Source of the DNA: Patescibacteria group bacterium
GTDB lineage: Bacteria; Patescibacteriota; JACPGU01
NCBI GenBank assembly: GCA_022703645.1
Contig: JAKLDG010000002.1
Coordinates: 1-40,237, forward strand
Reading direction: 5' to 3'
DNA length: 40,237 nucleotides
Shown: piece by piece, positions 5,694 through 40,237 of the stretch
How positions within the stretch are numbered: the first letter of the stretch is position 1
Layout of the letters: each line of letters opens with the position of its first letter
Notes under the pieces: generated by a model
What the model was told of the DNA's origin: nothing
Database searches by the model: none
Seen by the model: the letters and a program-made list of their open reading frames with translations, nothing else
Position numbers and translations under genes: made by a program

Positions 5694-5695
5694 AA

Positions 5696-7035: not shown

Positions 7036-7106
7036 AATAAAATCAATATAATAATTAACAAAAATACAGGGCATAAAATATAACCAATCTCTAATATTTT
7101 ATTCAT
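7023..7106 (-). CDS. Tiny hydrophobic ORF (27 aa), speculative
   Basis: MNKILEIGYILCPVFLLIIILILLCID. Its ATG overlaps the stop of the 7103..7294 ORF (ATGA) and its end overlaps the queD start. It is too short to support by itself. Confidence 0.2.
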   Translation of the reverse strand: MNKILEIGYILCPVFLLIIILILLCID

Positions 7107-7294: not shown

Positions 7295-7418
7295 ACAGTT
7301 TTTCTATGATTAAACTATTTAATTCTTTTTGATATTGTTCTAGCTTTAATTGACAAACAAAGATTTCTAATTTTAATCTGCACTCATTTAATTCTTTTAT
7401 CATTGTTTTGATTTCCAT
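7281..7418 (-). CDS. Small coiled-coil-like hypothetical protein (45 aa)
   Basis: Hand translation: MEIKTMIKELNECRLKLEIFVCQLKLEQYQKELNSLIIEKLYEVV. It fills an otherwise non-coding 128-nt gap and overlaps the next start. Confidence 0.35.
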   Translation of the reverse strand: MEIKTMIKELNECRLKLEIFVCQLKLEQYQKELNSLIIEKLYEVV

Positions 7419-7422
7419 TTTT

Positions 7423-7770
7423 TTATTTTACGGTTATTATTTCTGGCACTTTTACTCTTGGTCGCCATATAACAATCCATTTTTCTACATTCGGCGGAAC
7501 TATTAAATTATCAAAATTGACTATGGCTTCTTTTTTTAATGACATATCCCCACCTTTCACTTGAACAAAAACGAGGTGCTTATCATTCATTGCCATACAA
7601 TCACTTCCCCAAATATCTTTCTTTTGCCATAACATTCTACTTTGACCAGTTTTTTTGTCTTTGATAAATAATCCATTCAGTCTTTCCAGTTTGGCAACTC
7701 TGTATCCTTCCTCCTCTAAAAACTCTATTGTCTTATTCAAATAATAATTTCCTCGTGATACATTACTCAT
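7423..7770 (-). CDS. PD-(D/E)XK-type nuclease-like protein (Holliday-junction-resolvase-like)
   Basis: 115 aa. FLEEEGYRVAKLE...DIWGSDCMAMNDKHLVFVQVKGG resembles the D...(D/E/Q)xK core of small Hjc/VRR-NUC-type nucleases. Weak, motif-only call. Confidence 0.4.
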   Translation of the reverse strand: MSNVSRGNYYLNKTIEFLEEEGYRVAKLERLNGLFIKDKKTGQSRMLWQKKDIWGSDCMAMNDKHLVFVQVKGGDMSLKKEAIVNFDNLIVPPNVEKWIVIWRPRVKVPEIITVK

Positions 7771-8033
7771 TTTTTTTGTTTCTTAATCTGCCTTTCAATA
7801 AATGCCTCGCGCTCTTTTGTTTCTTCTTCATCGGCTAAAAATTCTTTGGCTCTTTTTCTGCTCTTAAAATTATCAAACACCAGCCACGACTTCAACGCCT
7901 CAACCCATATCTGAATTGAAAAAGTATTTTTTTTATTCTTTTTAATAATTGTCATTCTATCTGCAAAAACAGACCGTCCTAAAATGGTATTGCCGGTCTG
8001 CTCTTTCCTAGGTTGTTGACTTTCGTTTTGCAT
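7767..8033 (-). CDS. Hypothetical basic protein (88 aa)
   Basis: ATG-initiated first ORF downstream of the 8.07-kb promoter. Confidence 0.55.
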   Translation of the reverse strand: MQNESQQPRKEQTGNTILGRSVFADRMTIIKKNKKNTFSIQIWVEALKSWLVFDNFKSRKRAKEFLADEEETKEREAFIERQIKKQKK

Positions 8034-13624: not shown

Positions 13625-14416
13625 TTAAGAATTTAACAAAGTTTTTAGTCCTATCTCTGCTCTTTTTTCCGAAATATCTTTGAATGATGTCCATTTTATG
13701 CTAGTTTTTTTCTGAAATAACTCTAACGCCTCTTGTTCTGTTTTTGCTCCTAGCTTATGAAGCACGAACTTAACTTTATCAAGGGTTGTCTGTTTTGGTT
13801 TTACTTCTTTGATAGGCTCATAAGTTATTTCCGGCTCTTTGGTTTGTTTGACTGTTGGACTAACCATATCTTCGGTTATCTTTTTTGCGCCGATGTCTTT
13901 GAATTCATTTTTGCCATAAACATCAGAAGCGATACCGAGTTGCGAAGCACATTTTTTTAGTGCGTCTGTTGAGGCGGATTTCAAATCATTCCCATAGTCC
14001 AAAGCCTCTTGACTGCCTCGTTTGAATTTCATATCTGCTCTACCAAACTGCTCTTTGATTATTCTTACATTTCCGTCTTTGTCTCGGATAGTCAAACGAC
14101 CTTGCACCCATACTAAATTTCCCTCTCTGCCTTTGTCGATAATTTGAAAATCCCACGACCAACCAAAAACATAATTGAGAACTTTCGTGACATAAGTTCC
14201 GGTCACATATTCCCATTCTCCGCCTCCTTTGGCTGGTCTTTTGTAGATATGATTAGCTGGTGTTCTACCCAACATAAAAGCAAGTTGCCGTTCAGAAACA
14301 AAAGAGTTCGACATTGCCAATTTTGGCTCTGCGACTACCAGTTCTTTACTTACAACCTGCTTTTTTGAAATTTTTTTTACAACCTTTTTCTTGGTTGGTT
14401 TTTTTGTCTTTTTCAT
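13625..14416 (-). CDS. Rad52/22-family single-strand annealing protein
   Basis: 263 aa. YVTGTYVTKVLNYVFGWSWDFQI...GRLTI...DYGNDLKSASTDALKKCASQLGIASDVY matches the Rad52/Sak-type core pattern. Confidence 0.75.
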   Translation of the reverse strand: MKKTKKPTKKKVVKKISKKQVVSKELVVAEPKLAMSNSFVSERQLAFMLGRTPANHIYKRPAKGGGEWEYVTGTYVTKVLNYVFGWSWDFQIIDKGREGNLVWVQGRLTIRDKDGNVRIIKEQFGRADMKFKRGSQEALDYGNDLKSASTDALKKCASQLGIASDVYGKNEFKDIGAKKITEDMVSPTVKQTKEPEITYEPIKEVKPKQTTLDKVKFVLHKLGAKTEQEALELFQKKTSIKWTSFKDISEKRAEIGLKTLLNS

Positions 14417-20343: not shown

Positions 20344-21039
20344 TTATACCTTTTGAATAAACACGGTCGCTCTGTATGGTGGCATATTATTATGAGCGCC
20401 TCCACTGCCGGCATTATTATTGGTAGCAGTTGTGGCTTGGTTTGTAGCGGTTGTGGCAATGTTGGTAGCGGTTGTATTGTTGATTGCTGGGGTTGCACTA
20501 CTTACATCATAATCGTCATCCGCATTATTATCAGCGACAGTTGTTCCACTTCCGTCAACCACCTCATTATCTCCTCCGTGATGTTTATGCGACTCTTGCG
20601 TATGGTTGTGGGGGTTTTGACTATGGTTATGAGCGTTTTGCGTGTGATTATGAGCATTTTGCGTATGCGTATGCACCGGCATTTCAGTTGCCGATAAAGT
20701 GTGATTAGCTTCTCCTCCGGTGTCTGCTGTGTCATAAGTTCCACCGGTATCTTGCCCCGGACAAAGTGCAAATTTATTTCTCATATCAATCGTTCCATTT
20801 GAGCCATTGCAAAAGCTATATCCAGCCGGAATTGTAGCAATCGTTCCGTTCCACATAATGATTCCACCTTTTGGAAGTAGTCCCCAATCAGCGTGAATAT
20901 CTGCCGGAGCAATCAAAGTTCCGTCCTCGTCGCTGTGGTGTGCGCCAGCAATTAAATCCAGCATATCGTCAAAATTTTGATTGACTTCCTCGGGGTCAAT
21001 AGTGGTGTTGTTTGTGAAAGTGTAAGACTTATTTATCAT
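20344..21039 (-). CDS. Tail-collar-domain fibre protein with His-rich repeat insert
   Basis: GGIIMWNGTIATIPAGYSFCNGSNGTIDMRNKF...GGEANHTLSATEMPVHTH...GGAHNNMPPYRATVFIQKV matches the phage tail-collar pattern. The start is set at ATG 21039; the track start at 21057 is TTG. Confidence 0.75.
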   Translation of the reverse strand: MINKSYTFTNNTTIDPEEVNQNFDDMLDLIAGAHHSDEDGTLIAPADIHADWGLLPKGGIIMWNGTIATIPAGYSFCNGSNGTIDMRNKFALCPGQDTGGTYDTADTGGEANHTLSATEMPVHTHTQNAHNHTQNAHNHSQNPHNHTQESHKHHGGDNEVVDGSGTTVADNNADDDYDVSSATPAINNTTATNIATTATNQATTATNNNAGSGGAHNNMPPYRATVFIQKV

Positions 21040-21367
21040 ATTTTTTAAGTTTATCAATTATTACTCCTAGTTTTGATTCTACTCGGGTTATGGCAGTCTT
21101 ATCTATTCTTTCTAATTGTCTTTCTCTAACTTTTTTATCCAAAACTTTTCCTTTTATTTTATCTGTTCTTTGTTTTTTTATTGCCTCGAATAATCTGTCA
21201 ACTTGCGATTCTTTCAAATTATCAACTGCACTTTTACTCAAAGCCATTCTCATTTTTGAGCCGTCAGATAAATTGAACCAAACCTCTCGATAATTTACAC
21301 GCTGAACAATCCCATTCGGGGTTATTCTTAAAATCACTTCATCTGTTATTGGACATCTTATTTCCAT
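21029..21367 (-). CDS. Hypothetical tail-module protein (112 aa)
   Basis: ATG-initiated ORF between the Tal-like and fibre genes. Confidence 0.55.
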   Translation of the reverse strand: MEIRCPITDEVILRITPNGIVQRVNYREVWFNLSDGSKMRMALSKSAVDNLKESQVDRLFEAIKKQRTDKIKGKVLDKKVRERQLERIDKTAITRVESKLGVIIDKLKKYDK

Positions 21368-27202: not shown

Positions 27203-27294
27203 TTTATTACTTAATCTTATTTATTACTTATACTCGGGAAAAACCCAACTAGGGTATTTCCCAACTAGGGAAAATCGGCACTAGGCTCTATCGA
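27203..27294. repeat. Second origin-like repeat block: 2x TTTATTACT plus 3-4 tandem 16-bp iterons (array inverted relative to 10674..10721)
   Basis: TTTATTACT occurs at 27203 and 27220. The iterons are TACTCGGGAAAAACCC (27231..27246), AACTAGGGTATTTCCC (27247..27262), AACTAGGGAAAATCGG (27263..27278) and a degenerate CACTAGGCTCTATCGA. ACTCGGGAAAAACCCAA is identical to the minus strand at ~10.70-10.72 kb. Confidence 0.6.
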
Positions 27295-28088: not shown

Positions 28089-28394
28089 CTATAATTTAGC
28101 CAATAAAACTTCCATATGTGGAAAAGCACCATAATCGAAATTTTTAATTGACTGAACTGTATATTCCACTTCTTCCAATAATATTCTGTCGCTTTCTTTC
28201 AAATCAATTTGCTGACAAAATAATTTGAAAATCTTGCCAATTTTTTGACTGCCAATTTCTTCCAAATCTCCGTAAGGTTGTAGCATACCTGCTTGGGCGG
28301 TCAAATATTCTTGATAATCGCTCTTTGAAGTATCCGCAATATCGGTTAATCTTTTTGTAGTAAATTCAGTTTTTAGTAATGATTCAAACGACAT
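28089..28394 (-). CDS. Head closure protein (SPP1 gp16 / HK97 gp9-like)
   Basis: About 101 aa. ...AQAGMLQPYGDLEEI...DRILLEEVEYTVQSIKNFDYGAFPHMEVLL is typical of head-closure proteins. The start is set at ATG 28394; the track start is TTG. Confidence 0.55.
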   Translation of the reverse strand: MSFESLLKTEFTTKRLTDIADTSKSDYQEYLTAQAGMLQPYGDLEEIGSQKIGKIFKLFCQQIDLKESDRILLEEVEYTVQSIKNFDYGAFPHMEVLLAKL

Positions 28395-28995
28395 TTTGTT
28401 TAGTAAATTCTTCAATTATTTCTTTAGCTAATTCAAAATCTTTCCATTGGTCATCTTTATAAGAAACAGAATAGTCGCCAATTTTTTCACTTTTGATTTC
28501 TCCGTCTGCGTGATTGCTAAAATTCATAATGCCGGAGGCTAAAACCATTGTAGCGAAATTTATCTGTTTTGGCACTGTTGACGAGTAGCCAAATTGACCG
28601 GTTATTTTGATATTTCGGATTCCAGAGTTAAAAACCGAAATTAAGGGGTTTCCGGGTGCGACAATCAGTTTACGCATAGGCTGGCTGTTGTAGGGATAGC
28701 CGTAGCAATGCGTATCTAGCTCCAAGGTGTATAATATGGTTCCGTCGGTATCAAGTATCTCAACAGAGGTAATTTCGAGGCACTCGTCGATATACATTTC
28801 CTCTTTTCCGTTGCCGTCAAAGTATCTGACTTCGTCCTCTGCGTCATCTTCAAGTATGAAGTTTCTGCCGGTTCGCCTGTCAATAATTGCTTCGGCAGTT
28901 TCAATCCAGCTTTCAATCTGCGTTTCAAATCCACTCTCAATTTCCGTAAGAGTGTAATTTTCGATTTCTTCAACTGAACAATATCCTTTTAACAT
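28384..28995 (-). CDS. Head-tail adaptor (gp6-like connector) with C-terminal extension
   Basis: The N-terminus SVEEIENYTLTEI...QIESWIETAEAIIDRRTGRNF resembles gp6-like head-tail connector proteins. Confidence 0.6.
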   Translation of the reverse strand: MLKGYCSVEEIENYTLTEIESGFETQIESWIETAEAIIDRRTGRNFILEDDAEDEVRYFDGNGKEEMYIDECLEITSVEILDTDGTILYTLELDTHCYGYPYNSQPMRKLIVAPGNPLISVFNSGIRNIKITGQFGYSSTVPKQINFATMVLASGIMNFSNHADGEIKSEKIGDYSVSYKDDQWKDFELAKEIIEEFTKQNVV

Positions 28996-28999
28996 ATTT

Positions 29000-30736
29000 T
29001 TATAATTTTACAGAATAAGGTTTCGTTTTTTTTGAATAAGGATTTACTTTTCTGCCATAATGGCTGTTTTTTCTAGTATAAATCCTTTTCAATCTTTTTG
29101 CAATAGCTGTCAATTCTATGCTTCGATTGCTGTTGACGGTTATTGCTCCCACGATGTCAATATTTCTGTCATTTGATAAAGTTTCTATACCTGACAATTC
29201 AATTCCTCGTTCGCTGGTTTCTCGATATGCTCCAAAAATATTGATTGCTCTCTCGCTTAATAACTGGTCTGTGCCGTGTAAATTTATATTTCTTTCCGAG
29301 TTAGTTTCTGCCTCTGCCTCTAAGATAATGCCTCTTTCGGAAGTAGTATCAATTTTTCCAGTCAATTCAATTTGACGAATTTCGTTAGCTGTTTTTTCTC
29401 CGGTGGCTTCTATTGTTCTTTGAGAATATGCCGAATTTTTACCGCTCAATTCAATATATCTTTCTTCTTGACTTTCATCAATTCCGCTAAGTTCTATTAT
29501 TCGTTCCTCTATTTTAGTATTTGCTCCAACAAGTTCTATTTCTCTGTCCTCATTTTTTGAATCAATACCGCCAACCTCTAAACTTCTTTCTGTCTGACTA
29601 AAATTTTCAGCATTTAATTCAATGCTTCTTTCGTCATCAGCACTTTCTTTACCAGTTATTTCAAAGGCTCGTTCTGTTTGAGTAGTATCAATTCCAGCTA
29701 CTTCAATTATTCTTTCTCCAACTCCTCTGATTGTTCCTTCCAATTCAATTTCTCTTTCAGTGTTTGTTTGGTTGATTCCTTTGACTTCAATATTTCTGTC
29801 GCCAGTAATTTTTATTGAACCAATCAAATCAATATTTCTTTCGCTTTGAGCATTATCAATTCCGTGTAATTCAAATTCTGTTTCTGTTTCTGTTTGATTT
29901 TGTCCGGCAAGGTTTATTGCTCTTTCTGATTGGCTAAATTCTTTACCCACTAATTCAATGTCTCGATTATCTATCGCTTGATTTTCTCCGTGCAACTCAA
30001 TAGCTTTTTCGGTATTGGCAAGTTCTTTTCCGGTCAATTCTATCGCTCGGGTTTCTAATAAAGTTTCAATACCGCTCAATTCAATGTTCCGGTCGCTGAC
30101 ATTATTTTGCGTTCCCTCAATTTCAATCGCCCTGTCGCTCGTCTCAATTTTTTTAGCAGATAACTCAATACTTCTTTCTGAATTGACTATGGTCTTACCG
30201 GATAACTCAATCACTCGTTCTGATAAACTATTATCTTCTCCGTGAATATTTATAATTCTATCAGAATTTGATAAATCTTCTCCGTGAACTTCTACGGCTC
30301 GGTCTGAATTGGTAATATCTTTACCGGCTAAATTTATTGCTCGGTCTGAATTTGATATTTCTTTTCCTTGAAGTTCTAATGCTCTTTCGCTGTTGGAAAT
30401 ATTTTTTCCAGTGATATTTATTGCTCGTTCGGAGTTAGTATTTTCTTTTCCAGTTAGCACAATACTCCTGTCTGAATTTGCAGAATTTTTACCAGTGATA
30501 ATAATTGCTCTATCTGAATTTGTCGAGGCTTTACCGGATAATTCTATGCTTCTGTCTGAACTATCAGTTGTTCCTCCTCCTCCGCCTGTTGCACTAACTC
30601 CCCAAAAAGGCGTTCCTTTATCTTGATAATCTAACCCATTCAAATCTACATCTGATTTTGCTCCGACATTAAGAAAAGGCTTTCCTTTATGTTGCCAATC
30701 CATTGTCTCCAAGTTTTCTTTTGTTGGTAAAGCCAT
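29000..30736 (-). CDS. Repeat protein: 59-aa N-terminal module, 35 tandem 14-aa repeats, 29-aa basic tail (fibre or solenoid candidate)
   Basis: 578-aa ORF. Residues 60-549 parse into exactly 35 units of 14 aa (consensus S-[DE]-R-x-I-[EN]-L-x-G-x-x-x-x-N) with no indel. Confidence 0.8.
   Translation of the reverse strand: MALPTKENLETMDWQHKGKPFLNVGAKSDVDLNGLDYQDKGTPFWGVSATGGGGGTTDSSDRSIELSGKASTNSDRAIIITGKNSANSDRSIVLTGKENTNSERAINITGKNISNSERALELQGKEISNSDRAINLAGKDITNSDRAVEVHGEDLSNSDRIINIHGEDNSLSERVIELSGKTIVNSERSIELSAKKIETSDRAIEIEGTQNNVSDRNIELSGIETLLETRAIELTGKELANTEKAIELHGENQAIDNRDIELVGKEFSQSERAINLAGQNQTETETEFELHGIDNAQSERNIDLIGSIKITGDRNIEVKGINQTNTEREIELEGTIRGVGERIIEVAGIDTTQTERAFEITGKESADDERSIELNAENFSQTERSLEVGGIDSKNEDREIELVGANTKIEERIIELSGIDESQEERYIELSGKNSAYSQRTIEATGEKTANEIRQIELTGKIDTTSERGIILEAEAETNSERNINLHGTDQLLSERAINIFGAYRETSERGIELSGIETLSNDRNIDIVGAITVNSNRSIELTAIAKRLKRIYTRKNSHYGRKVNPYSKKTKPYSVKL
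29090..30559 (-). repeat. 42-bp-period coding tandem repeat (35 diverged copies)
   Basis: This is the DNA equivalent of residues 60-549 of the 578-aa ORF. The copies are diverged at the nucleotide level but strictly in register. Confidence 0.85.
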
Positions 30737-30737
30737 T

Positions 30738-31025
30738 TCATTTCTTTATTATCTCATTATTATTTTTAATCATTTCGAGATTAACTTTTCTGTCGCTCAA
30801 TTCGATAATTTTATTATCAATCTCTTTTATTTCTTCCACAATATCCTTTTCTTTTTGTGCCTCTCGGTTGATTAAAAATTTTTCCACTCCTTTTTTGACA
30901 GTTGCGTCATCTACTTCGCCGTGAAATTTTAAGATAATACTTTCTCCCTCGCCAATGTCAATATACGCCCGATATTTTCCGGCAATGTCCATTTCCTTTT
31001 TCCAAATTTTTTTATATTCTTGCAT
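30738..31025 (-). CDS. Hypothetical protein (95 aa), possible fibre chaperone
   Basis: ATG-initiated ORF with a coiled-coil-like C-terminus, between the two large accessory genes. The function is a guess. Confidence 0.5.
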   Translation of the reverse strand: MQEYKKIWKKEMDIAGKYRAYIDIGEGESIILKFHGEVDDATVKKGVEKFLINREAQKEKDIVEEIKEIDNKIIELSDRKVNLEMIKNNNEIIKK

Positions 31026-31029
31026 AAAT

Positions 31030-33393
31030 TTAAGCTTGGCTAATTGTTATATCGTCAATATAAACGCTACTATTTCCTGCTACAAAATATCCTTCAAAAA
31101 TAATCTCTACCACTCCGGCAACAGTCGGCGTGAAGCTAATTGATAATTGTTCCCAATCTGTATCATTAGCTTTGACATCGGCAACATCTGTCGTCACTCC
31201 GGCAATCTGTTTGCCTTTACAAACTATTCTCGCACCGACATCGGTAGCGTGGTCTTTTTTAACATAAGCAGAAACCGTCACTTCGGCATTAGCGTTGCAA
31301 GCCACTTTAGCAATTCTCATATTTATTGGAAAAGTAGCGTTTCGAATTCCTCTAGTAGTAGTAATTTGCCAAGCTTTTCCACTGGCGGTATGCCGTGTCG
31401 TGGCTTGGTGGTAAATTCTACCGCCCATTAAAAATACCACTAAATTTCCGGCAGTGTCGTCGTGATTGAGTGAGTAAATTCTATCGCCATATTCATCATA
31501 GAATAGCGTAGTTGCTAATTCAACAAATTCAGTTGCTTCATTTATAATGGCAGTTTCAATATTGGCAAAAGTTCCATAAGTTGCCATTCCTCCGAGTGTG
31601 TTATTTTTTGTTTCTAAAAATCCAACAGTGCCACCACTAGGCGTATTGTTAAAGATAACTCCATTTTTTGTATTATCGTGAGAAAGCGTGATTTCATCAA
31701 TTCTCGAATCAGAATCTGCTCCAATCATTACTCCGTGTCCAGTATTATAAGCAACATCTTCAATCGTTCCAATGCTAGAATTTCTTAAAATAATATACAG
31801 TCCGACTGTAGTTGATAAATTTCCTTTAACATTTTTTATTGTTCCAACAACTGAACCTTTTTGAGCAGTTATTTGCGTATAATTAGAATAATTATAATTC
31901 ATATTATAAATACTATCCAATGTTGAATTTATCATCGTTATTGCTAATCCACCATCTCCGGTATTATTAACATTTCCAATAACGCCTATGTCTAAATCAT
32001 AGCCATTGGTAATATAAAATCCTCGAGAAGCAGAATTGCTTGAATCTTGCACATCAATCTTAAATCCGACTGGGGTGTCTAAATAAAAATTAGAATAATA
32101 CCTCGTAGCAGATATTCTATCCAAAGTTATATAATATTTGCCTGACGCAGAATAAATTCCGTATCCTCCTCCATTTGTTCCGTCAAAAAAAGTTTCTCCG
32201 TTTTGTTCTGATGATGATGTGTCATATCCTCCTTGAAATGCAAGTCTATTTGCCATACTTCCTCCACTGTCTTGAATTTCTTGAACTTTTGCCGTAGTGC
32301 TTGAAGCAAAAACTGTTTTTATTGTTTCTCTTTTGTAAGTAGCAACATTTTCAGTCGTTCCGTAATATTTTCCGATATTCGCAACTTCTGCAGTAGGGTC
32401 TCTATCCAAAGTAATAGTATCTCCGACAATACTTTTAATAGCATACCAGCCTTCTTCTCCGCCGTGAGCAAGGGAATTTTTTGAAATAAGACTTGTCAAT
32501 GAAAGACTGTCCGCTGAACCAACAGCTTTGCAAGCGATAATATTATCAAGATAAATTGTCGGTGTGGTTGGGTCGCTGGTGCAAGTTAGTGAAATACTAT
32601 TTATATTACTTCCCAAAGCAGAGCCTTTATTAACAGTAATACAATGCCAACGACCAGCATATAATAAATCTGGAATAGCAAAACTATCTACTACTGTCGT
32701 TCCGGCGGTATCAGAGCATAAATTTAATGTCATTCCTTTGCCATTAAAAGTTGTGCTGGAAGCCCTTATCCAAAAACTTAATTGTTGATATCCTGATAAA
32801 TTCAATGCTCCACCTAAATTTCTGTAAGCCAACATTCCAGTTGTAAAACTAGACCCAACTACTATTTTTGCTCCATAAGTCCCTTGTTTGACATAATCAG
32901 TAGAAGCAGTTGCTGTAATATTAGCGGAAGCTGTCCAACCACTTTCACATAAATCAACTGTGGCATTGACAGCTGTATCTAAAACAACTGTCGAGCCTTG
33001 GTCTGTCCAATCAGCATTTCCAACCGAGGTAGGGTCTGGACTTTTAGCTATACGAATTATATCTCCTCCTCCAACTCGTGCGGCGGTTGCTCCTGATGTT
33101 ATGGTCTTCCAAGCTAAAGCCCAAGTTGAGCCGTCATTAGCGTCAGAGCCATTGACATAATCTAAATAATATGTCGAGTTGCCGGTCGCCCAGTGGATTA
33201 TTCTTGACAATTTTGAAGATTTTTGACCTTTGTTAGTCAAGACATCTTCTAAAAAAACTATAAATTTTTTGACAAATTTAATATGCCCAAAATCATAACC
33301 ACCATTAAATCTTATTCGTAAAAGCAAGTCAATTAGTTTTGACGATATTATGTCATTATTTTTGTCTAGTAATAGTTCTTTGGCTATCAACAT
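31030..33393 (-). CDS. Right-handed beta-helix protein flanked by two CBM-like jelly-roll modules (depolymerase/fibre-like)
   Basis: 787 aa. YYLDYVNGSDANDGSTWALAWKTITSGA...GGGDIIRIAKS is typical of pectate-lyase-like beta-helix N-caps. Repetitive N/G/T-rich rungs span ~aa 430-620. The CBM-like segments end in ...IYLDNIIA and ...VYIDDITISQA. Confidence 0.6.
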   Translation of the reverse strand: MLIAKELLLDKNNDIISSKLIDLLLRIRFNGGYDFGHIKFVKKFIVFLEDVLTNKGQKSSKLSRIIHWATGNSTYYLDYVNGSDANDGSTWALAWKTITSGATAARVGGGDIIRIAKSPDPTSVGNADWTDQGSTVVLDTAVNATVDLCESGWTASANITATASTDYVKQGTYGAKIVVGSSFTTGMLAYRNLGGALNLSGYQQLSFWIRASSTTFNGKGMTLNLCSDTAGTTVVDSFAIPDLLYAGRWHCITVNKGSALGSNINSISLTCTSDPTTPTIYLDNIIACKAVGSADSLSLTSLISKNSLAHGGEEGWYAIKSIVGDTITLDRDPTAEVANIGKYYGTTENVATYKRETIKTVFASSTTAKVQEIQDSGGSMANRLAFQGGYDTSSSEQNGETFFDGTNGGGYGIYSASGKYYITLDRISATRYYSNFYLDTPVGFKIDVQDSSNSASRGFYITNGYDLDIGVIGNVNNTGDGGLAITMINSTLDSIYNMNYNYSNYTQITAQKGSVVGTIKNVKGNLSTTVGLYIILRNSSIGTIEDVAYNTGHGVMIGADSDSRIDEITLSHDNTKNGVIFNNTPSGGTVGFLETKNNTLGGMATYGTFANIETAIINEATEFVELATTLFYDEYGDRIYSLNHDDTAGNLVVFLMGGRIYHQATTRHTASGKAWQITTTRGIRNATFPINMRIAKVACNANAEVTVSAYVKKDHATDVGARIVCKGKQIAGVTTDVADVKANDTDWEQLSISFTPTVAGVVEIIFEGYFVAGNSSVYIDDITISQA

Positions 33394-33402
33394 ATTTTTT
33401 AC

Positions 33403-33807
33403 TTAAATTATTACACTCCAAGATATTTCAGGGTTTTTTTCTGACACCCAAATTTGAAGTTTCTTATTTTCATAAATAGCTTCCGCCACTGTATAAAGTT
33501 CTTGCTCCTCCATTTGTCCGTTGCATACATCAGCTCCCATTGCTCGAAACATTTTATAGCCGGTTGGCTTTTCTGCCAAATCAAAAACTCGGAACTTTGG
33601 ATTTCTGCCTGCACTAGGCAAATTCCAGCGTTGTCCCGAGTTTGTGTAAAGTGAAAGAGAAGTTATCTGCAACTTTTCTTCCGTAAGTTTTTTTTGTAAT
33701 TTCTGCCAAGGGGAAAGTTCGTTTTTAACTAATTGATAATCGCCTTTGCCCTCGTATAGCGTTTGTCCGTTAGATAGACTAACCGACCAATTTATTTGAG
33801 TCTTCAT
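33403..33807 (-). CDS. Hypothetical protein (134 aa)
   Basis: ATG-initiated ORF with no recognised motif. Confidence 0.55.
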   Translation of the reverse strand: MKTQINWSVSLSNGQTLYEGKGDYQLVKNELSPWQKLQKKLTEEKLQITSLSLYTNSGQRWNLPSAGRNPKFRVFDLAEKPTGYKMFRAMGADVCNGQMEEQELYTVAEAIYENKKLQIWVSEKNPEISWSVII

Positions 33808-33828
33808 AAGCCTCGTTATTTTTAATTT

Positions 33829-34392
33829 TTAACTATAAGTCAATTCTATTCGATATTTTCCAGTCTTAGCTCCAACACTGGAAGGACTGGCAGAACAAGC
33901 AATAAAGAAGTCGTGCGAAGTTCCTGCGGAATTGTCTGCCAATGCTAGGGCTGAACCACTACCCTCTGCGTCTGTGAAATTAGCGTTTCCAACTTCCGCT
34001 GCTTTGAAATTTATCCCACTTGGTGCGGTGGCTGGGGTTGAGCCGTCATAAGCGTAAAATATTGCGTCCTCGGTAATGACAGAAGCGTCGTCAGCAAAGT
34101 TTATTTTCAAATTAGCCTCTGCGGTTGTAATTTGGTCAAGGTCTTCTGTTCCGTCTCCCCAATCAGCTTGACTGTCTCCGCCTGTGCCTCCTGCTTGCGA
34201 AATAAACTTAACATTGTTTGGAGTATTAGCGGAAGACTTGTCGGCGTTAGCGGCGGTTTTGACGTGGTTTGAATCATTATATTCGTCAACAGTTATTTTG
34301 CCGTCAAATGTGCCATTGGCAAATTGTAATTTGTCAGTAGCGTCAATAACCGTTGGGGTTGCTCCTTGGAGCGTGTGTGTAAATGTAGCCAT
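33829..34392 (-). CDS. S/T/A/G/D-rich hypothetical virion-surface candidate (187 aa)
   Basis: ATG-initiated. Its composition is distinct and more G+C-rich than neighbouring genes, and it has no hydrophobic segments. A decoration role is inferred from position only. Confidence 0.55.
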   Translation of the reverse strand: MATFTHTLQGATPTVIDATDKLQFANGTFDGKITVDEYNDSNHVKTAANADKSSANTPNNVKFISQAGGTGGDSQADWGDGTEDLDQITTAEANLKINFADDASVITEDAIFYAYDGSTPATAPSGINFKAAEVGNANFTDAEGSGSALALADNSAGTSHDFFIACSASPSSVGAKTGKYRIELTYS

Positions 34393-34421
34393 AGCTTTTT
34401 TATTATTAAATTATTACTTAA

Positions 34422-34637
34422 TTACTTTTTACCTTTCGCCGGTTTTATCATTCTATTTTTTACCGGTTTCATTTCCTTGGTTTGCATTACTGTTTTTTCC
34501 ACTTTTCTTTCCTCTGTTTTTTCAATCAAGCCTTTTTTCTCGGCAATCTCGATTGAGCTTTCTTCCATTTCCACGACATCGCCTTTTTTAACTGGTGTGC
34601 CTCGGAATGAAAAATTTTCTTTTGCGATTACTTTCAT
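34422..34637 (-). CDS. Small protein (71 aa) whose N-terminal domain resembles the C-terminus of the upstream glycosyltransferase
   Basis: MKVIAKENFSFRGTPVKKGDVVEMEESSIEIAEKKGLIE aligns by eye with GIIAKSDFKYQGKLQKKGEYVNIRIQDMQLLKSKGCI. The start is set at ATG 34637; the track start is TTG. Confidence 0.5.
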   Translation of the reverse strand: MKVIAKENFSFRGTPVKKGDVVEMEESSIEIAEKKGLIEKTEERKVEKTVMQTKEMKPVKNRMIKPAKGKK

Positions 34638-34654
34638 AGATATTTTTTTAATTA

Positions 34655-36004
34655 TTATATACAACCTTTACTTTTTAGCAGTTGCATATCTTGTATTCTG
34701 ATATTAACATATTCTCCTTTTTTTTGCAACTTGCCTTGATATTTGAAATCACTCTTTGCGATTATTCCCTCGGAAGTTATCTCCTCTATGGCTTTTCTCT
34801 CCGGTAATTCCATTTTTTCTAATTTCTTTAACCATTTATCATTAAATAATTCCTCATTCTCTCTAGCGTAAGTGAATCGGTCGGCACTCTTGCTCAAAAA
34901 ATGAGTAATGGCATTTCTGACATATCCGAATTTCTTTTTTTTCTGCATTGCTCTTAGGAAAAAATCAACATCTTCGCCACCATTCATAAATTCTTCATCT
35001 AATCCGCCTAATTCTTCCCAAATGTCTTTCTTGACCTTAAAACAAAATCCACTAGGCATACTTTCATATCCGGCAATATCCTCTAGGCTTTTTACAATTA
35101 CTCCGTTTTCTAATTTTATGCTTATGCCGTATTTAGTCACTTTTCTGTCAGGAATGTATTGAGCAATGCCGGTAATATCGCTATCGTCCTTTACCATTTT
35201 CATTAAGTATTCGTGAACTGGGATAGTATCGTCATTCAAGAAAATTAAATTTTCTGTTTCTGCCAGTCTAGCTCCTTTATTACAACTCTCGGAAAATGTG
35301 CCACCGCTAATTATGATAATATTAAATAACTTATTGTCTAATGTTTTTAAGCAGTCTGCCAATAGTTCGTGCTGGTCGTGGTGGGGGATAATAATATCAG
35401 CAATTTTTTTAAGGTGTTTCTTATATAAATATTTCATCCATTTTTCACTATCATTGCCGGTTGAAATTCCTCCCGGTCGGTTGAATGTTTTGAACAATAT
35501 CTTATCGCAAAAAACTGGTTTGTGTCCGGCTCGAGTTAGTCTTATCCATAATTCCCAATCATCATATCTTCGCATATCAGGACTAAATTTTGGTTTTGCA
35601 CTGGCTCTTATCAATGACATTGTGCTAATTCCGTGAAAGTAGTCAATAAATTCTTTGCTCTCCATATCTTCCGGCATTTCTCCTTTGTTGATATTAAATT
35701 CTGTCCGGTCGATAATAAATTTCCCGAAAGCCCAATCAGCCCATTTATTTTCCTGCAAGGTTTGGTATAAATTACTTAGACAATCCTTATCTAAATCTAA
35801 GTCATTATCACAAAAAAATAAATACTCTCCTTTGGCTTTTTTTAATCCCTCATTTCTTGCCCAACTAGCGCCTTTAGCGTCTTTATCAATAATTTCAATT
35901 ATCTCAATATTATTGTAGGTCTGTTCTTTAACCGATTTCAAAGATTCGTTTTTCTCTGTTGCTCGGTTTGGAATAATTATTGATATTAGTGGCAATTTTT
36001 TCAT
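34655..36004 (-). CDS. Two-domain GT2-family (GT-A fold) glycosyltransferase
   Basis: Domain 1: LISIIIPNRATEKNESLKSVKEQTYNNIEIIEIID...GASWARNEGLKKAKGEYLFFCDNDLDL (DxD). Domain 2: ADIIIPHHDQHELLADCLKTL...SCNKGARLAETENLIFLNDDTIP. Confidence 0.75.
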   Translation of the reverse strand: MKKLPLISIIIPNRATEKNESLKSVKEQTYNNIEIIEIIDKDAKGASWARNEGLKKAKGEYLFFCDNDLDLDKDCLSNLYQTLQENKWADWAFGKFIIDRTEFNINKGEMPEDMESKEFIDYFHGISTMSLIRASAKPKFSPDMRRYDDWELWIRLTRAGHKPVFCDKILFKTFNRPGGISTGNDSEKWMKYLYKKHLKKIADIIIPHHDQHELLADCLKTLDNKLFNIIIISGGTFSESCNKGARLAETENLIFLNDDTIPVHEYLMKMVKDDSDITGIAQYIPDRKVTKYGISIKLENGVIVKSLEDIAGYESMPSGFCFKVKKDIWEELGGLDEEFMNGGEDVDFFLRAMQKKKKFGYVRNAITHFLSKSADRFTYARENEELFNDKWLKKLEKMELPERKAIEEITSEGIIAKSDFKYQGKLQKKGEYVNIRIQDMQLLKSKGCI

Positions 36005-36024
36005 TATTTTAATATTGTGCCAAT

Positions 36025-36046
36025 GGCTGGGATTTTACTCCCAGCC
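36025..36046 (-). terminator. Perfect 8-bp GC-rich stem-loop just downstream of the capsid gene (attenuator or RNA-stability element)
   Basis: ggctggga (36025..36032) pairs with tcccagcc (36039..36046), with a 6-nt loop. No U-tract follows on the minus strand. Confidence 0.45.
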
Positions 36047-36060
36047 ACGCACATAAATCC

Positions 36061-37188
36061 TTAATATACTTCAGGAACATCCAACAAAACTACAGCCTCG
36101 TTCATCGCCATCATTCCGTCTGTTCTCTTGACTAGACGAACAGTGATTTCATCATATCTAAATCTCTCGTGAATGGAAGCGTCAACTGTAATTCCTTCTC
36201 GGTCTCCGATATAATACCAACTAAAATCTACAAAGATAAGGTCTCCCTTAGTTCCAAGTTCTGAAACCTTTTCAGTTTCAATGAAAGGTCGTCCTTTTAA
36301 GGTTGGAGGTGTTCCCTCTTTATAGCTGTCAGCCCAAATCGGTCGTCCGGTAGTTGCATCAACTAATCCGTCAAGATATTCAATCACGCTTGTAGAACCA
36401 AGCCAAATGGCGTTCTTTCTGAACTGTGGTTTAAGCGAATAAAACATCGAGATAACATCAGCATAACTAACTTTATTAGCCTCTACTCGGTTCACAACTG
36501 GCGAATCTTCGTCAGCAATAATACCAAGAGGTTGAGTCTCGCCGTCGCCGTTTAGGAAGGCATAATCTTCAAAATAAACAGCCGCGCGACCAAAAATATT
36601 GACTACATAGTTTGCAAAGTCAATATTGCTATCGGACAAAATTTCTCTCGATTCAGAAGTAAGCATAAGCATTTTCTTTGCTACCAAAGAAACTTGTTTT
36701 AGCTTAAATTGAGTATCAGTAGTCGTTCCACTTTCGCCAACCCAAGAAACCGTCACACCACCGAAAGAATTACCTGACTGGTCAAGTTTATTTTTCTTCC
36801 AAGTGTTTGATTTCATTTTAATAACAGTCGCTCTTGGTCTAACGATAGCTTCTTCTTCCATATAGGACAAAATGGAAGCTTCGAGTTCTTCCGGCACTGT
36901 AAATCCTCCGTCGTCATCATCTGTTTCGTTAAAAACAGACTTGGTGTTTCTCATCATTGCTTTCAAATCGGAACAAAACTTATCCATTTCAGAACCAAGT
37001 TTTACGAAAGGAGCTTTCGTTCTTTTCATATCCATTAAAGACTTCTCGCCTAGTTCCAAATCCTTGTTTCTAAGGTCAGCGTCTTTTTTGGTTTGGTCTT
37101 GAACAATGGTTTTGATTTCGTCCATTTTTCCGGCAACGACATCATTGACAGCTTTGCCAATGAGTTCTAACAATTCTTTTTCGTTCAT
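36061..37188 (-). CDS. Major capsid protein, HK97 fold, with N-terminal delta-like domain
   Basis: 375 aa. The N-terminal ~100 aa are coiled-coil. Then DDGGFTVPEELEASIL..., ...FEDYAFLNGDGETQPLGII... and ...GRPFIETEKV... match the HK97-type capsid family pattern. Follows the prohead protease. Confidence 0.9.
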   Translation of the reverse strand: MNEKELLELIGKAVNDVVAGKMDEIKTIVQDQTKKDADLRNKDLELGEKSLMDMKRTKAPFVKLGSEMDKFCSDLKAMMRNTKSVFNETDDDDGGFTVPEELEASILSYMEEEAIVRPRATVIKMKSNTWKKNKLDQSGNSFGGVTVSWVGESGTTTDTQFKLKQVSLVAKKMLMLTSESREILSDSNIDFANYVVNIFGRAAVYFEDYAFLNGDGETQPLGIIADEDSPVVNRVEANKVSYADVISMFYSLKPQFRKNAIWLGSTSVIEYLDGLVDATTGRPIWADSYKEGTPPTLKGRPFIETEKVSELGTKGDLIFVDFSWYYIGDREGITVDASIHERFRYDEITVRLVKRTDGMMAMNEAVVLLDVPEVY

Positions 37189-37205: not shown

Positions 37206-38108
37206 TTATTTATCTCCTATTGTCTTGCGCAATTTTATTAGTTGCGCTTCGACAACTTTATCAATAATTTTCATAGCTTCGGCATACTCAAGTTTCAACA
37301 CTTTTTCTGCGATTGTTTCTTTGGAGCGACCGTCAGTGCCTTTGCCGTCTTTCTCGTCATCGGCTTCCGTAGTTGCCTCTAACAATTTTTTTAACGGCGC
37401 GCTTGCACTGTCCATTGAATCAATACACGCTTGAATTAAATCACGATTCTTTTTTGATAGGACTTTCCCAGCTTTCTGCTCGATGTCTTTCTTGAAGTCC
37501 TCTAATTCTTGTTTGGTAAAAATTATTTTTTCTTCCTCTTCCTTTTTTTCTTCCTCTTTAATTTCTTTCTTTTCTTCGTCTATGATTTCTTTCCAATTAT
37601 TTACCGGTAATTCATTGGCTTTTTTATCCATTAAAAATCTTGATACTGTTTTACATTCTAATTTATCAATGCCTTTCATAAGTGCTTCCGCATAAGCTGG
37701 CACATTTACAAAGGACACTTCTAGCAATTCTTGTTTCAAAAAATCTACTCCTTTATCATTAAATTGCCATTCAAGAGGCATAAATCCAACAGAAAATGCT
37801 TGAATAAATCCTTGCTCGCATAATAGTTTTATCTCTTGACCAAATGGAGTAGGAGCAAATTCGCCTTTTAGCAATAACTCTTTTCCCTCTTGCCATACTT
37901 TCAATGCTCTGCCGACTGCTGGTTGATAATGGTCGTGCGCCCATAATAGCACAGGGTTTTTCTTATAATTCTTTAGCTCCCAACCCTCTGCGTTGATAGT
38001 ATCGCCATAGCGGTCAGTCTTAATACCGGAAACGACAGCCTCAAAAGTGCCGTCATCGCCAACGCTTTTTACACTTAATTCTCCAAGTCCATAAATCTTG
38101 TGTTTCAT
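37206..38108 (-). CDS. HK97-family prohead protease with E/K-rich C-terminal (scaffold-like) extension
   Basis: AVVSGIKTDRYGDTINAEGW...NPVLLWAHDHYQPAVGRAL...AFSVGFMP...EVSFVNVPAYAEA, then KEIKEEEKKEEEEK. The start is set at ATG 38108; the track start at 38132 is TTG. Confidence 0.85.
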   Translation of the reverse strand: MKHKIYGLGELSVKSVGDDGTFEAVVSGIKTDRYGDTINAEGWELKNYKKNPVLLWAHDHYQPAVGRALKVWQEGKELLLKGEFAPTPFGQEIKLLCEQGFIQAFSVGFMPLEWQFNDKGVDFLKQELLEVSFVNVPAYAEALMKGIDKLECKTVSRFLMDKKANELPVNNWKEIIDEEKKEIKEEEKKEEEEKIIFTKQELEDFKKDIEQKAGKVLSKKNRDLIQACIDSMDSASAPLKKLLEATTEADDEKDGKGTDGRSKETIAEKVLKLEYAEAMKIIDKVVEAQLIKLRKTIGDK

Positions 38109-38124
38109 ATTGTTATAATTATTA

Positions 38125-40237
38125 TTATTCAATTACTGGTAATATTGTGCAACGACAATTTATGATATTTTCGGGACTGCCGTTTGGGTCTCCCGGATAA
38201 TCTAATTCTTCATCGCCCACCTCAAATTTTTTATCAATATTGACGACTTGTCCGTCAGCGTGGCTATGTCCGTCTCTCGTTTTTTTGTCTTGTGTTGCCA
38301 ACCATTCCTTTTTTTTCACTACGCCGGATTGCTTATATCCAAATACTGTTCCTGCATTGTTAGCAGATAGCACCTCTGTTCTCGATATAGTTTTGCTACT
38401 GCTTAAAATTCTTAATCCATAAACCTCCTCAATTCTTTTTGCCAATTCGCCAATACTCTCTCCGTTTAATACGCCGTCTGCTAAGGTGTTTTTGATTTTC
38501 TTAATAGTCGTCTCATTTACTTCTTCTGCGAATTTCATTGCTTTTAATTCTATCCATTCGGCAGTTATCGGGTCGCTGATTTCAAAATCTTTTTTAATTG
38601 ATTTCTCTCCGACTTGTGCCAACGCTTCATTTCCAGCCTCCTCAACTATCTTTGTGAAAGTAGGCGTTGATTTCTTTATAAATATTTTAACCTCTTTTTT
38701 GAAATTAAGCAAATCCAATTCAGAACTTTTAACAGTCTTGCCAAGTTTTGATTTTTTCAAAGCCTCTAAGGCTCTCTCTTGTTGTTCTCGGAATAATGAA
38801 TTGACCATTGCCTTAAATTTTTTCTCCCAACCGATAATAGACTTGTCGAAAATATCCCAAGCTTTTTTTCTTTTATCTTCTTCCTCTTTTTTTACAGCAT
38901 TTTTACTAATTTGATTTTGAATTGATTTTGCTACTTCGATTGTTATTTTGGAAATTAAATCTTCTTTTAGTCTTAGCATTTTTCTTCCTCTAACTGCTTT
39001 GCGATAAATCTTTTTTAGTTGCTCCTCTTTTCTTCTTGTGTAAAATTCCTTAGCGGTTATGTTCCCTCCAATCTTAATAATAGCAAAACCTGATTTTGTA
39101 ATTTTCATAGCTTTATTCGTATCGTCATCGTCTTCGCCTGTGTCGTTCGTATTTTCAATACCCATAGGCATAAGGGATAGCGGTTGATAAATAAAATCTC
39201 CTCCCTCTATTGGGTCGTAGCCTTGCTCCATTCTTATTTCGTTGGTCGTCATCCATTTATTATGGGCTTTGATATAGTGGTCATCGAGGGAAGCTTTGTC
39301 GTCCGGTGTTGGGTCAATGTTCAATAAAAATAAATCGTCTCCATATTCTGTCACTAAAAATTGATTCAAGACATCGACGTGCTTTTCCATTTTTGGTCTA
39401 ATTGTTTCCGATAAGAAAGCATACACTCCAGCTTCTGCGTTGGCTCGGTTCACATCGTCAGTTATCGCCATAATTGCCTTGTTCACTCCGAGGGTCATTA
39501 AAACATCATCTCGGTTGGCAATTCTCATATTGGCAAAGTCCATATCTTTTTGAGAAACGCTCACTGCCTCATATTTCAATCCGTTTGTGAGAATAGAAAC
39601 TTTACCGGCATTATCTACACCACCATATTTCTCATTCCATTTTTCCAAAATTTCTTCCTTGTCCTCTTTGTTCATTGCTTTTTCACTTGTCAGCAAAGCG
39701 TCTGGTCTAGCAGAGTTGTAAAAAAATCTAGTATTCCATTTTTTAGCATAGACATCAGAACGGATAACTTCCATTACTGATTGCACTGCTCCATAACCGT
39801 AATAGTCTGAAAGTGGGTCAGGTTCTTTGAAATGTATCACATCTTCCGCCGGAAATTTTATCTCTTTTCCGTTTAAGCGAAATTTATAATAGCTAATCCC
39901 TCCGTCATTGGCTGGCACGATAGTAGTCAAGTCCGGTCTCATCAACCATAACTCAATTACTTGTTTGTTTGCTCCTCTAGCTTTATACCAATAGCATTGT
40001 CCTAGCAATGACAAATAAATCGAAGTTATTTCGATTAACTGGCTACCGCTCATTACTGGGTTTGGATTTTGAAGTAAGTCAAGAAGTTCGTGCTGTTCAA
40101 TTTCTCTTGCTTTCAATCCTCGTAATTGATAAAGTTCATATTCTATCGTGGACATTTTCTCCCCGATTTTCTTTGTGCAAGAGTGGACAAGTGAGCTTGC
40201 TCTGAATGATTGCAAATAATCTCTCGTGCTTGGTTCA
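38125..40237 (-). CDS. Portal protein (HK97 family) fused to a Mu F / SPP1 gp7-like head-morphogenesis domain; the 5' end continues at 78..163 across the junction
   Basis: The portal part reads LLDLLQNPNP...LLGQCYWYK...YYGYGAVQSV. The C-terminal ~250 aa end in TRDGHSHADGQVVNIDKKFEVGDEELDYPGDPNGSPENIINCRCTILPV, the MuF motif. An SD-preceded internal ATG at 40155 is an alternative start. Confidence 0.85.
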   Translation of the reverse strand, partial: EPSTRDYLQSFRASSLVHSCTKKIGEKMSTIEYELYQLRGLKAREIEQHELLDLLQNPNPVMSGSQLIEITSIYLSLLGQCYWYKARGANKQVIELWLMRPDLTTIVPANDGGISYYKFRLNGKEIKFPAEDVIHFKEPDPLSDYYGYGAVQSVMEVIRSDVYAKKWNTRFFYNSARPDALLTSEKAMNKEDKEEILEKWNEKYGGVDNAGKVSILTNGLKYEAVSVSQKDMDFANMRIANRDDVLMTLGVNKAIMAITDDVNRANAEAGVYAFLSETIRPKMEKHVDVLNQFLVTEYGDDLFLLNIDPTPDDKASLDDHYIKAHNKWMTTNEIRMEQGYDPIEGGDFIYQPLSLMPMGIENTNDTGEDDDDTNKAMKITKSGFAIIKIGGNITAKEFYTRRKEEQLKKIYRKAVRGRKMLRLKEDLISKITIEVAKSIQNQISKNAVKKEEEDKRKKAWDIFDKSIIGWEKKFKAMVNSLFREQQERALEALKKSKLGKTVKSSELDLLNFKKEVKIFIKKSTPTFTKIVEEAGNEALAQVGEKSIKKDFEISDPITAEWIELKAMKFAEEVNETTIKKIKNTLADGVLNGESIGELAKRIEEVYGLRILSSSKTISRTEVLSANNAGTVFGYKQSGVVKKKEWLATQDKKTRDGHSHADGQVVNIDKKFEVGDEELDYPGDPNGSPENIINCRCTILPVIE
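40161..40237. repeat. Terminal direct repeat, copy 2 (identical to 1..77)
   Basis: Same 77 nt as the window start. Confidence 0.95.

Follow-up and report, generated by a model that had tools for sequence, protein, structure and literature searches.

Why would a tailed phage keep seven genes between its major capsid gene and its head-tail adaptor gene, when the one is usually followed directly by the other? The question is raised by contig JAKLDG010000002.1 of the Patescibacteria group bacterium assembly GCA_022703645.1, a stretch of 40,237 nucleotides that was analysed whole and that we call the window. The usual layout, to which a first-pass annotation of this DNA had appealed, is found in the outgroups that carry a homologous adaptor (L044, L047, L071, L081, L090 and L102; handles of this kind are our own labels for the loci compared). 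The seven genes are all present on the minus strand at positions 28,996 to 36,060 with the contents described in that annotation: a double glycosyltransferase (GT) followed by p71, p187, p134, p787, p95 and p578, named for their length in residues. We propose, at a probability of about 0.55, that this 7-kb block is the adsorption cassette of its lineage, a fixed capsid-adaptor slot whose content is swapped by recombination and whose products build one composite fibre. The block is, as had been suggested, a coherent accessory cassette of surface-interaction proteins and a GT that stands apart from the tail-tip set of Dit, Tal and collar fibre. Seen against known kinds of system, namely receptor-binding fibre cassettes, head or neck fibres and virion glycosylation, it is best described as a swappable adhesin or depolymerase fibre module with an associated GT. 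Its new features are the conserved slot with its fixed GT, the C-terminal aromatic-proline tails proposed as anchors, a gene triad with an unmatched fold, and a 50-aa partner domain of beta-helix proteins.

The slot is kept across the lineage. Close cultured relatives were not found by megablast, capsid identity to cultured phages was at most 34%, and a first scan of metagenome contigs with the capsid protein gave no confirmed match; metagenomic relatives were recovered through GT and capsid protein searches. Close relatives have capsids 64–72% and adaptors 48–57% identical to those of the window, and wherever capsid identity is at least 64% and downstream sequence is available, the double GT follows the capsid gene. 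The GT stands beside the capsid in L001/2, L010, L012, L013, L016, L018, L019, L023-25, L027 and L028, with one extra gene in between in L010 and L027, and the slot with its GT is present too in L016, whose capsid is just 39% identical. The adaptor lies 5.3–9.2 kb beyond wherever the contig extends that far, and the intervening genes vary by phage (Table 1). In all relatives but L016 the slot closes with a large variable protein that ends in a (K/R)xxPYS tail. As read from gene order, the slot is old, its ends are conserved (GT and p71 at one, the C-terminal tail and the adaptor at the other) and its middle is exchanged, a pattern like that of host-recognition loci. The idea that the cassette might be an indel was not borne out: the slot is retained with swapped content, which is not the signature of a one-off insertion, and a recent foreign origin is rejected because its GC content of 0.34–0.38 does not stand out within the genome and the slot dates back as far as the lineage itself. 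By the same comparisons the window cassette is a composite of mobile modules, consisting of the GT with p71, a triad of p187, p134 and a 14-aa-repeat protein, and p787.

Three patterns of co-occurrence meet in p578, the last protein of the cassette. The first concerns its N-terminal domain and beta-helix proteins. In the unrelated phages L004 and L005, the gene that directly follows a p787 homologue begins with a p578-type N-terminus, and across 79 beta-helix loci with 4,579 open reading frames (ORFs) all 19 ORFs that carry the motif lie 0–570 nt downstream of the beta-helix gene and none lies upstream, the motif ORF being present in 19 of the 65 evaluable loci. Elsewhere the same domain occurs as a free protein of 64–87 aa or fused to other repeat stalks. 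The second concerns the repeats, which are in register (autocorrelation of 1.7–1.9 at lags 14 and 28; shuffled sequences reach at most -0.23) and recur in L045 (proteins of 375 and 1060 aa) and L047 (747 aa), always in the company of p187 and p134. The third is the tie of the PYS tail to the lineage and the slot: the tail ends the last cassette gene in L010, L012, L013 and L018 and is carried by a separate 111-aa protein in L016. The N-termini of these last genes vary, being LamG- and GH5-like in L012 and consisting of two Collar-like domains in L018 (read from the sequence of the 799-aa protein, which has no Pfam match), and their amphipathic repeats measure 14, ~18 or ~28 aa depending on the phage, with the PYS tail constant throughout. 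Because these three patterns meet in p578, we suggest that p578, p787, p187 and p134 form one complex; the split-versus-fused pattern in sister phages likewise points to a p787–p578 complex, and since sister phages fuse binding domains to the N-terminus of the stalk, that end is probably the distal one. A second type of fibre tail is also found upstream of adaptor genes. This W-type tail is built of D/N-W-Y...D-P-K-T repeats (for example P-D-W-Y-D-E-D-P-K-T-Y) and occurs in L057-L093 (e.g. L067 4678-7632 and L086 11798-17209), within one adaptor clade only.

The predicted model of p787 suggests a tailspike- or depolymerase-like protein. It has a regular run of strands over ~residues 400–625, and its top Foldseek matches are phage tailspikes (E 5e-7 to 1e-5, with the K2-2 tailspike protein (TSP) 8iq9 at 5e-7); the matches include CBA120 TSP2/4, Depo32, GH87 and the carbohydrate-binding module (CBM) families CBM4/16/22. 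No Pfam family matches p787 itself, but its L013 orthologue (45% identity) matches Beta_helix, as do P0123 and others. At least 926 homologues exist, most of which lack the first ~70 aa, and this lineage-specific N-terminal stretch fits the role of an anchor. Like the tailspikes and depolymerases 8iq9, CBA120 TSP2/TSP4 and Depo32, p787 combines a beta-helix with flanking beta-sandwiches and an exchangeable N-terminus; it differs from them in showing no detectable sequence similarity and global TM-scores of 0.12–0.23, in having its gene in the head module between capsid and adaptor rather than in the tail-fibre region, and in possessing a dedicated 50-aa partner domain, here fused to a long repeat stalk. 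The small protein p95 is 35% identical (E 1e-7) to a 76-aa gene product in the same position in L013 and gave no family match in Pfam and PHROG profile searches.

The other small proteins of the cassette, p187 and p134, form with the repeat protein a mobile triad. The order p187, p134, 14-aa-repeat protein is found wherever sequence suffices (54 IMG/VR and four other loci), the combination of p187 and p134 with 14-aa repeats being present in the window, L045, L047 and ~50 IMG/VR loci, and p134 directly follows p187 in nearly all of the 54. Among 525 homologues of p187, the best 120 of 525 are 64–82% identical and almost all are 187–189 aa long. The p134 family comprises 153 representative clusters, nearly all of them stand-alone proteins of ~130–150 aa (46–47% identity in L045 and L047); among these clusters, one 879-aa match with ten short matched stretches left aside, no informative fusion to a known domain was seen. 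Neither p187 nor p134 has a tblastn match in cultured phages, and sequence searches of the PDB with p187 (single sequence and profile), p134, p787 and p578 returned nothing meaningful. Pilin-like Ig-fold matches of p187 had TM-scores of 0.25–0.38, which is too weak to be taken as evidence. Sister cassettes carry other small proteins with other repeats: p164 (phrog_23653) and p60 with ~18-aa repeats in L012, L013 and L018, and p140 (phrog_644) with ~28-aa repeats in L010. Remote homology among p187, the phrog_644-like p140 and the phrog_23653-like p164 is rejected at an hhalign probability below 1%, and their equivalence is positional only. Copies of the p164 family also occur in Methanobacterium virus PhiF1, where two of them (L107 7908-8456 and 8797-9330) precede a 1165-aa protein and a pseudomurein endoisopeptidase, so that the module of small protein plus giant protein crosses domains of life.

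From the observed gene content, slot conservation, modularity, co-occurrence and predicted folds we infer the physical complex, its polarity, its attachment site and the substrate of the GT. In this model p578 would be the stalk of one composite fibre, its 35 repeats forming a rigid shaft and its PYS tail anchoring the fibre to a lineage-specific part of the virion, for which the head-tail junction is favoured and the capsid possible. The shaft would need or carry p187 and p134, either as structural partners or as assembly factors, and the N-terminal 50 aa of p578 would dock the separately encoded p787, with p95 as an accessory. Such a fibre could bind, and perhaps cut, a glycan on the host surface in a first, reversible step of adsorption, leaving final binding to the small collar fibre at the tail tip. 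The GT would be made with the late proteins and would most likely modify a virion protein of the cassette.

Fibres on the head or neck that are dispensable and aid adsorption are familiar from model phages, as the fibritin whiskers of T4, the gp8.5 head fibres and gp12 appendages of phi29 and the neck passage structure of lactococcal phages. These are anchored by their N-termini, and none is known to be encoded in a swappable, GT-bearing slot. Two cultured phages offer closer parallels in gene order. In the satellite phage MiniFlayer the order runs capsid gp5, gp6, gp7, gp8 (1376 aa), 'tail fiber' gp9 and adaptor gp10, and gp6-gp9 were described by its authors as an adsorption module, with short fibres seen at the portal end by transmission electron microscopy (deCarvalho et al. 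2023, PMC10690885). The succession of capsid, small beta-rich protein, small protein, very large protein, fibre and adaptor is the same as in the slot, and MiniFlayer gp6 is 53% identical to p140 of L010, which occupies the p187 position. MiniFlayer differs in lacking a GT, 14-aa repeats, a beta-helix and any PYS tail so far noted, its homology is to the sister cassette of L010 and to no protein of the window, and it is podovirus-like, so that on its particle a tail fibre and a neck fibre occupy one and the same site. In the Caulobacter phage phiCbK, gp76 is a 2,799-aa lectin-domain protein proposed to form the head filament and to serve primary reversible attachment via the head end of the particle, an assignment that is bioinformatic, the protein not having been detected in virions (Gill et al. 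2012, PMC3556154). As in the slot, a giant repeat-expanded fibre gene lies in the head region, there following the gene for the major head protein and a terminator, and both p578 and p787 are, judged as genes alone, large repeat fibre genes in the head region of the phiCbK type. The phiCbK protein is Gly-rich and has neither 14-aa repeats, a GT, nor an adaptor gene immediately downstream. The phrog_644 protein gp75, encoded directly upstream of gp76, is 51% identical to L010 p140; the window has no homologue of gp75 or gp76, and only its sister L010 has a phrog_644 protein.

The first-pass annotation had envisaged head or neck surface structures, and this part of its claim stands halfway. In favour, the triad sits in the head module at ~27 of the ~30 resolvable loci, lying between capsid and adaptor at ~22 distinct loci and between portal and protease at ~5, and the cultured analogues above point the same way. 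PYS-tailed proteins are encoded 5–170 nt upstream of the adaptor in 13 of the 14 cases listed, several of these loci being duplicate contigs, and W-tailed proteins in all; when the adaptors are arranged in a neighbour-joining tree, the phages with W-type tails, with PYS-type tails and with neither fall apart into three clades, and L069 groups with the PYS phages even though 14.5 kb lie between its fibre gene and the adaptor. Attachment at the neck or head accordingly seems to us possible, at somewhat less than an even chance, for several observations weigh against the composite fibre or its placement there. Since the adaptor shares its descent with the capsid, portal and tail genes, the agreement of tail type with adaptor clade is confounded, and PYS tails occur in L045 and L069 with no double GT nearby. 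Further, p787 could be fixed to the virion separately, by its own lineage-specific N-terminal helices, in which case p578 would not be its stalk. The confident model of p187 matches no known fold, with no hit below E 0.01 in PDB or BFVD, and in this uncultured phage the GT is the sole cassette protein with a relative of known function.

The remaining adverse observations belong to the alternative that survives best, which we consider unlikely: that these are ordinary tail fibres or tailspikes of the tail tip or baseplate, and that a mobile module was merely inserted at the operon junction between capsid and adaptor. The same modules do occupy a canonical tail-fibre position in L004, L005, L069, L102, L118 and L129, so that displacement of ordinary tail fibres by rearrangement is in part borne out. 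Homologues of p787 follow the tape-measure and tail-fibre genes in L004 and L005 and the tape-measure protein (TMP) gene in L118 and L129; L069 carries the full triad, with a PYS-tailed 1224-aa protein, after its tail genes and before holin and lysin; L102 carries it after TMP and Dit and before the lysis genes; and in both L069 and L102 the adaptor comes straight after the capsid gene. Proteins related to the analogous small ones are found among minor tail proteins of the actinophages Brujita and Orchid (phrog_644) and, in the archaeal virus PhiF1, just before the giant protein and lysin gene, and the slot of L018 holds Collar (tail-collar) domains. Against a tail-tip location, the window already encodes a small but complete tail tip, including a collar fibre of its own, its Dit (253 aa) has no extra docking domains, the triad is in the head module at the great majority of loci counted above, and the conserved end of the fibre protein is the C-terminus, encoded beside the adaptor, rather than an N-terminal baseplate-binding domain.

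The GT of the cassette matches PF00535 Glycos_transf_2 at 58.5 bits (cut-off 23.3) and PF10111 at 43.4 bits (cut-off 27.3), and its motifs D66-N67-D68, N257-D258-D259 and E344-D345 are invariant in 28 homologues, from which both catalytic domains look active. Its last 36 residues (414–449) are a domain shared with p71 (BLASTP E 4e-5), which has homologues in L010, L012 and L018 and is fused to the GT in L013. A match of p71 to DUF7210 (PF23843) reached 19.1 bits against a gathering threshold of 27 and was not reproduced with the GT C-terminus or the sister p71 proteins, so the assignment was not adopted. The most economical guess from these genes is that the GT targets a virion protein of the slot. 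The PYS tail as its acceptor is unsupported, since the L045 and L069 tails occur without the double GT nearby.

The main rival target is a host glycopolymer, and the corresponding explanation, which we hold to be quite unlikely, places the GT outside the fibre system altogether: like TarP and GtrB, it would act on a glycopolymer of the host envelope so as to exclude superinfection or mask receptors, or else it would act on the phage DNA, and two unrelated functions would simply adjoin. The closest solved relative of the GT by sequence is indeed TarP (6h1j, 2e-7), a prophage transferase of N-acetylglucosamine to wall teichoic acid; its PHROG matches are classed under 'moron, auxiliary metabolic gene and host takeover', GtrB-like ones among them; the phage invests in DNA modification through DpdA and Que genes; and fibre modules in other lineages, such as L045, lack the double GT. 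Yet no other gene of the slot is as constant as the GT (61% identity in L016, where the capsid is at 39%), it lies within the late structural operon with no U-tract terminator, its sequence, as read, shows no predicted membrane part, it lacks GtrA/GtrC partners, and it shares a domain with the slot-specific p71.

Glycosylation of virion proteins by phage enzymes has precedent. Phage-encoded GTs of Che8, Corndog and Myrna are reported to glycosylate capsid and tail-tube subunits, and the GT genes of mycobacteriophages are located towards the right end of the genome (Maravista, cluster F1) or form a tandem set downstream of an O-methyltransferase (cluster O) (Freeman et al. 2023, as cited in PMC11256854 and PMC11600133). 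As in those phages, a GT, and in L010 also methyltransferases, stands alongside structural genes; the mycobacteriophage genes are not placed between capsid and adaptor as this one is. In the window, capsid (...LLDVPEVY) and tube (...LVNGVSTY) end without S/T-rich C-terminal extensions. In the mycobacteriophages studied by Freeman et al. 2023, glycosylated capsid and tube subunits reportedly carry such extensions. Methyltransferases and a GT1 also form clusters beside structural genes in L047 (1613-4772) and L010 (9121-10008 and 12058-13197), two phages with the same fibre modules; these clusters hint at methylated sugars or protein methylation.

The remaining version, which builds on the first-pass annotation and in which p187 and others decorate the capsid lattice under a glycan coat and the GT glycosylates them or the capsid, draws on the GT gene standing right after the capsid across the whole lineage, on the S/T/A/G-rich composition of p187 and its frequent place as first gene after the capsid, on the known phage GTs of capsid and tail tube and on the methyltransferases of L010, but we think it very improbable, because a lattice-binding protein should evolve together with its capsid and p187 is 64–74% identical between phages whose capsids are ~27% identical and missing from sisters whose capsids are 65–72% identical to that of the window, because in searches of PDB and BFVD it resembles no known decoration protein (gpD, Dec, Hoc, pb10 and Soc types) by fold or sequence, because neither capsid nor tube has the S/T-rich extension, and because many p187-bearing phages such as L045 lack a GT nearby. 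A stalk is the more likely partner of p187, judging by its co-inheritance, because it travels with p134 and the 14-aa repeat.

A wider generalisation is tentative and, on balance, doubtful: that an assemblage of ~36–45 kb uncultured phages carries an exchangeable adhesin platform in the head module, in which C-terminal PYS or W tails anchor at the head-tail junction or capsid and co-vary with the adaptor clade, repeat stalks have small partners of the p187/p134 kind, and the fibre is GT-modified in the present lineage. The assemblage includes relatives binned with genomes of the candidate phyla radiation (CPR) and Patescibacteria as well as marine members. If the proposal is correct, it would give neck and head fibres a defined genetic basis. 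The genes for such fibres are unknown or guessed where the fibres have been seen, as in phiCbK and 7-7-1, and the cassette with its hundreds of relatives supplies candidates, together with a predicted polarity and a predicted anchor motif. In this widespread uncultured group host-recognition genes often lie in the head module, where tools that seek receptor-binding proteins only after the tape measure miss them. Should the GT target prove to be a virion protein, phage-encoded virion glycosylation would extend beyond actinophages, and the cassette offers a handle on host recognition by phages with CPR/Patescibacteria-binned relatives.

Table 1. Features of the window referred to in the text, with gene orders of the slot in the window and its relatives (positions of the window; orders read from capsid to adaptor)
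Feature	Position	Strand	Remarks
TerL	217-1926	-	
DpdA-like queuine tRNA-ribosyltransferase	1787-3289	-	phrog_887, 2.6e-40
QueC	4091-4894	-	
GTP cyclohydrolase I	5145-5693	-	
QueE-like radical SAM	5842-6486	-	
QueD/PTPS	6616-7074	-	
Tail-collar fibre, 237 aa, after the Tal-like gene	20344-21057	-	phrog_8469, 6e-26
Head-tail adaptor, downstream flank	28384-28995	-	phrog_442, 5.5e-15
p578, 578 aa	29000-30736	-	
p578 residues 545-578, basic (K/R)xxPY(S/T) repeat tail, proposed virion anchor	29003-29104	-	
p578 residues 60-549, 35 gap-free 14-aa repeats (stalk)	29090-30559	-	S-[E/D]-R-x-I-E-L-x-G-x-x-x-x-N
p578 residues 1-50, double h-D-[YW]-x-x-x-G-x-P-F domain	30587-30736	-	
p95, small, charged, probably helical, travels with p787	30738-31025	-	
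p787, helices 1-70, CBM-like sandwich, right-handed parallel beta-helix, C-terminal sandwich	31030-33393	-	AlphaFold2 (AF2) pLDDT 87
p134, second gene of triad, just downstream of p187	33403-33807	-	
p187, all-beta, first gene of mobile triad	33829-34392	-	AF2 pLDDT 94.5
p71, copy of GT C-terminal domain plus basic tail	34422-34637	-	
GT, 449 aa, two-domain GT2 (GT-A), constant first gene of slot	34655-36004	-	
Stem-loop between capsid stop and GT start	36017-36052 (core 36025-36046)	-	-26 kcal/mol
HK97-type major capsid protein, upstream flank	36061-37188	-	Pfam Phage_capsid 7e-55; phrog_10 2e-60
S78 protease	37206-38132	-	
Portal-MuF fusion	38125-40215	-	reached from TerL across the window ends
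Slot order, window			GT, p71, p187, p134, p787, p95, p578
Slot order, L013			GT, p59, p164, 729-aa beta-helix (45% identical to p787), p76, p267
Slot order, L012			GT, p82, p63, p183, p66, 1184-aa protein with LamG- and GH5-like domains
Slot order, L018			GT, p76, p60, p176, 164-aa Collar-domain protein, 799-aa protein
Slot order, L010			methyltransferase, GT, p81, p140, methyltransferase, p393, two small genes, 1120-aa protein
Slot order, L016			GT, 111-aa PYS-repeat protein, p104, 1039-aa protein

The genome in which the cassette sits is complete at ~40.2 kb and circularly permuted, with every gene on the minus strand: TerL and the Que genes at the low end run on into the portal gene at the high end, and the window contig (also L006 and L007) emerged from independent assemblies of three unrelated datasets, at lengths of 40,190–40,301 bp. 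The late genes follow the order TerL, portal-MuF fusion, S78 protease, HK97 capsid, the seven cassette genes and adaptor, and then a 108-aa gene, a gp10-like gene, a 144-aa gene, the tube (Phage_tube_2), TMP, Dit, Tal (short, 413 aa), a 112-aa gene, the collar fibre and the holin. The adaptor, which also matches phrog_4931 and phrog_132 over its C-terminal 60 aa, is of the HK97 gp6-like type by profile and by its position upstream of the gp10-like and tube genes. The collar fibre, where the first-pass annotation had placed a conventional tail fibre, contains a His-rich run of HNHTQNA-type repeats, HTHTQNAHNHTQNAHNHSQNPHNHTQESHKHH.

The GC stem-loop reported after the capsid gene folds strongly in RNA folding (z = -5.4; none of 200 shuffles was equally stable), and a similar GC hairpin occupies the equivalent position in L001. 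It is not a canonical intrinsic terminator, having no U-tract and not being called by the terminator scan, and is possibly an attenuator or RNA-stability element. The sole intergenic hairpin with a T-run in the 27–38.5 kb stretch lies between the 144-aa and tube genes (27244-27269, minus strand), so the late region may split there and not after the capsid gene. The head modules of sister phages harbour selfish elements: L012 has a LAGLIDADG gene between portal and protease (7355-7807) and L013 a faint intein match (PF14890) in a 274-aa gene two genes upstream of the portal (2990-3814).

As to the host, relatives were binned in metagenome-assembled genomes (MAGs) labelled Moranbacteria, Parcubacteria, Patescibacteria and Saccharibacteria, the CPR-binned ones being L014 (GCA_003507495.1), L019 (CAYRCT010000032.1), P0014, P0132 and P0141. 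This binning is the sole clue, weak but consistent, to CPR/Patescibacteria hosts; phages bearing p187 occur in marine samples as well, and a scan of genome contigs yielded a single 5.5-kb contig, from a Saccharibacteria MAG, which does not suffice to identify a host. A GT 61% identical to that of the window lies at the end of a 205,687-bp contig (JGI 3300032112; L017 1-17356, also L029), in a region that adjoins cellular-looking response-regulator and RNase H genes and that IMG/VR holds as a 15-kb viral contig (uncultivated virus genome, UViG). If L017 is a prophage, as it may be, its contig could reveal the host.

Outside the late region, a full gene set for 7-deazaguanine DNA modification occupies 1787-7074 (minus strand), just upstream of TerL. 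Overlapping it, a 309-aa ORF (3274-4203, minus strand) has a sub-threshold match to Exostosin/GT47 (20.9 bits against 33.4). Sister phages have a GT1 and a radical-SAM gene at the equivalent position; the ORF was considered as a homologue of the sister GT1, and no homology was found. The early region encodes a recombinase of the Rad52/22 family (13625-14416, minus strand; PF04098, 2.6e-10).

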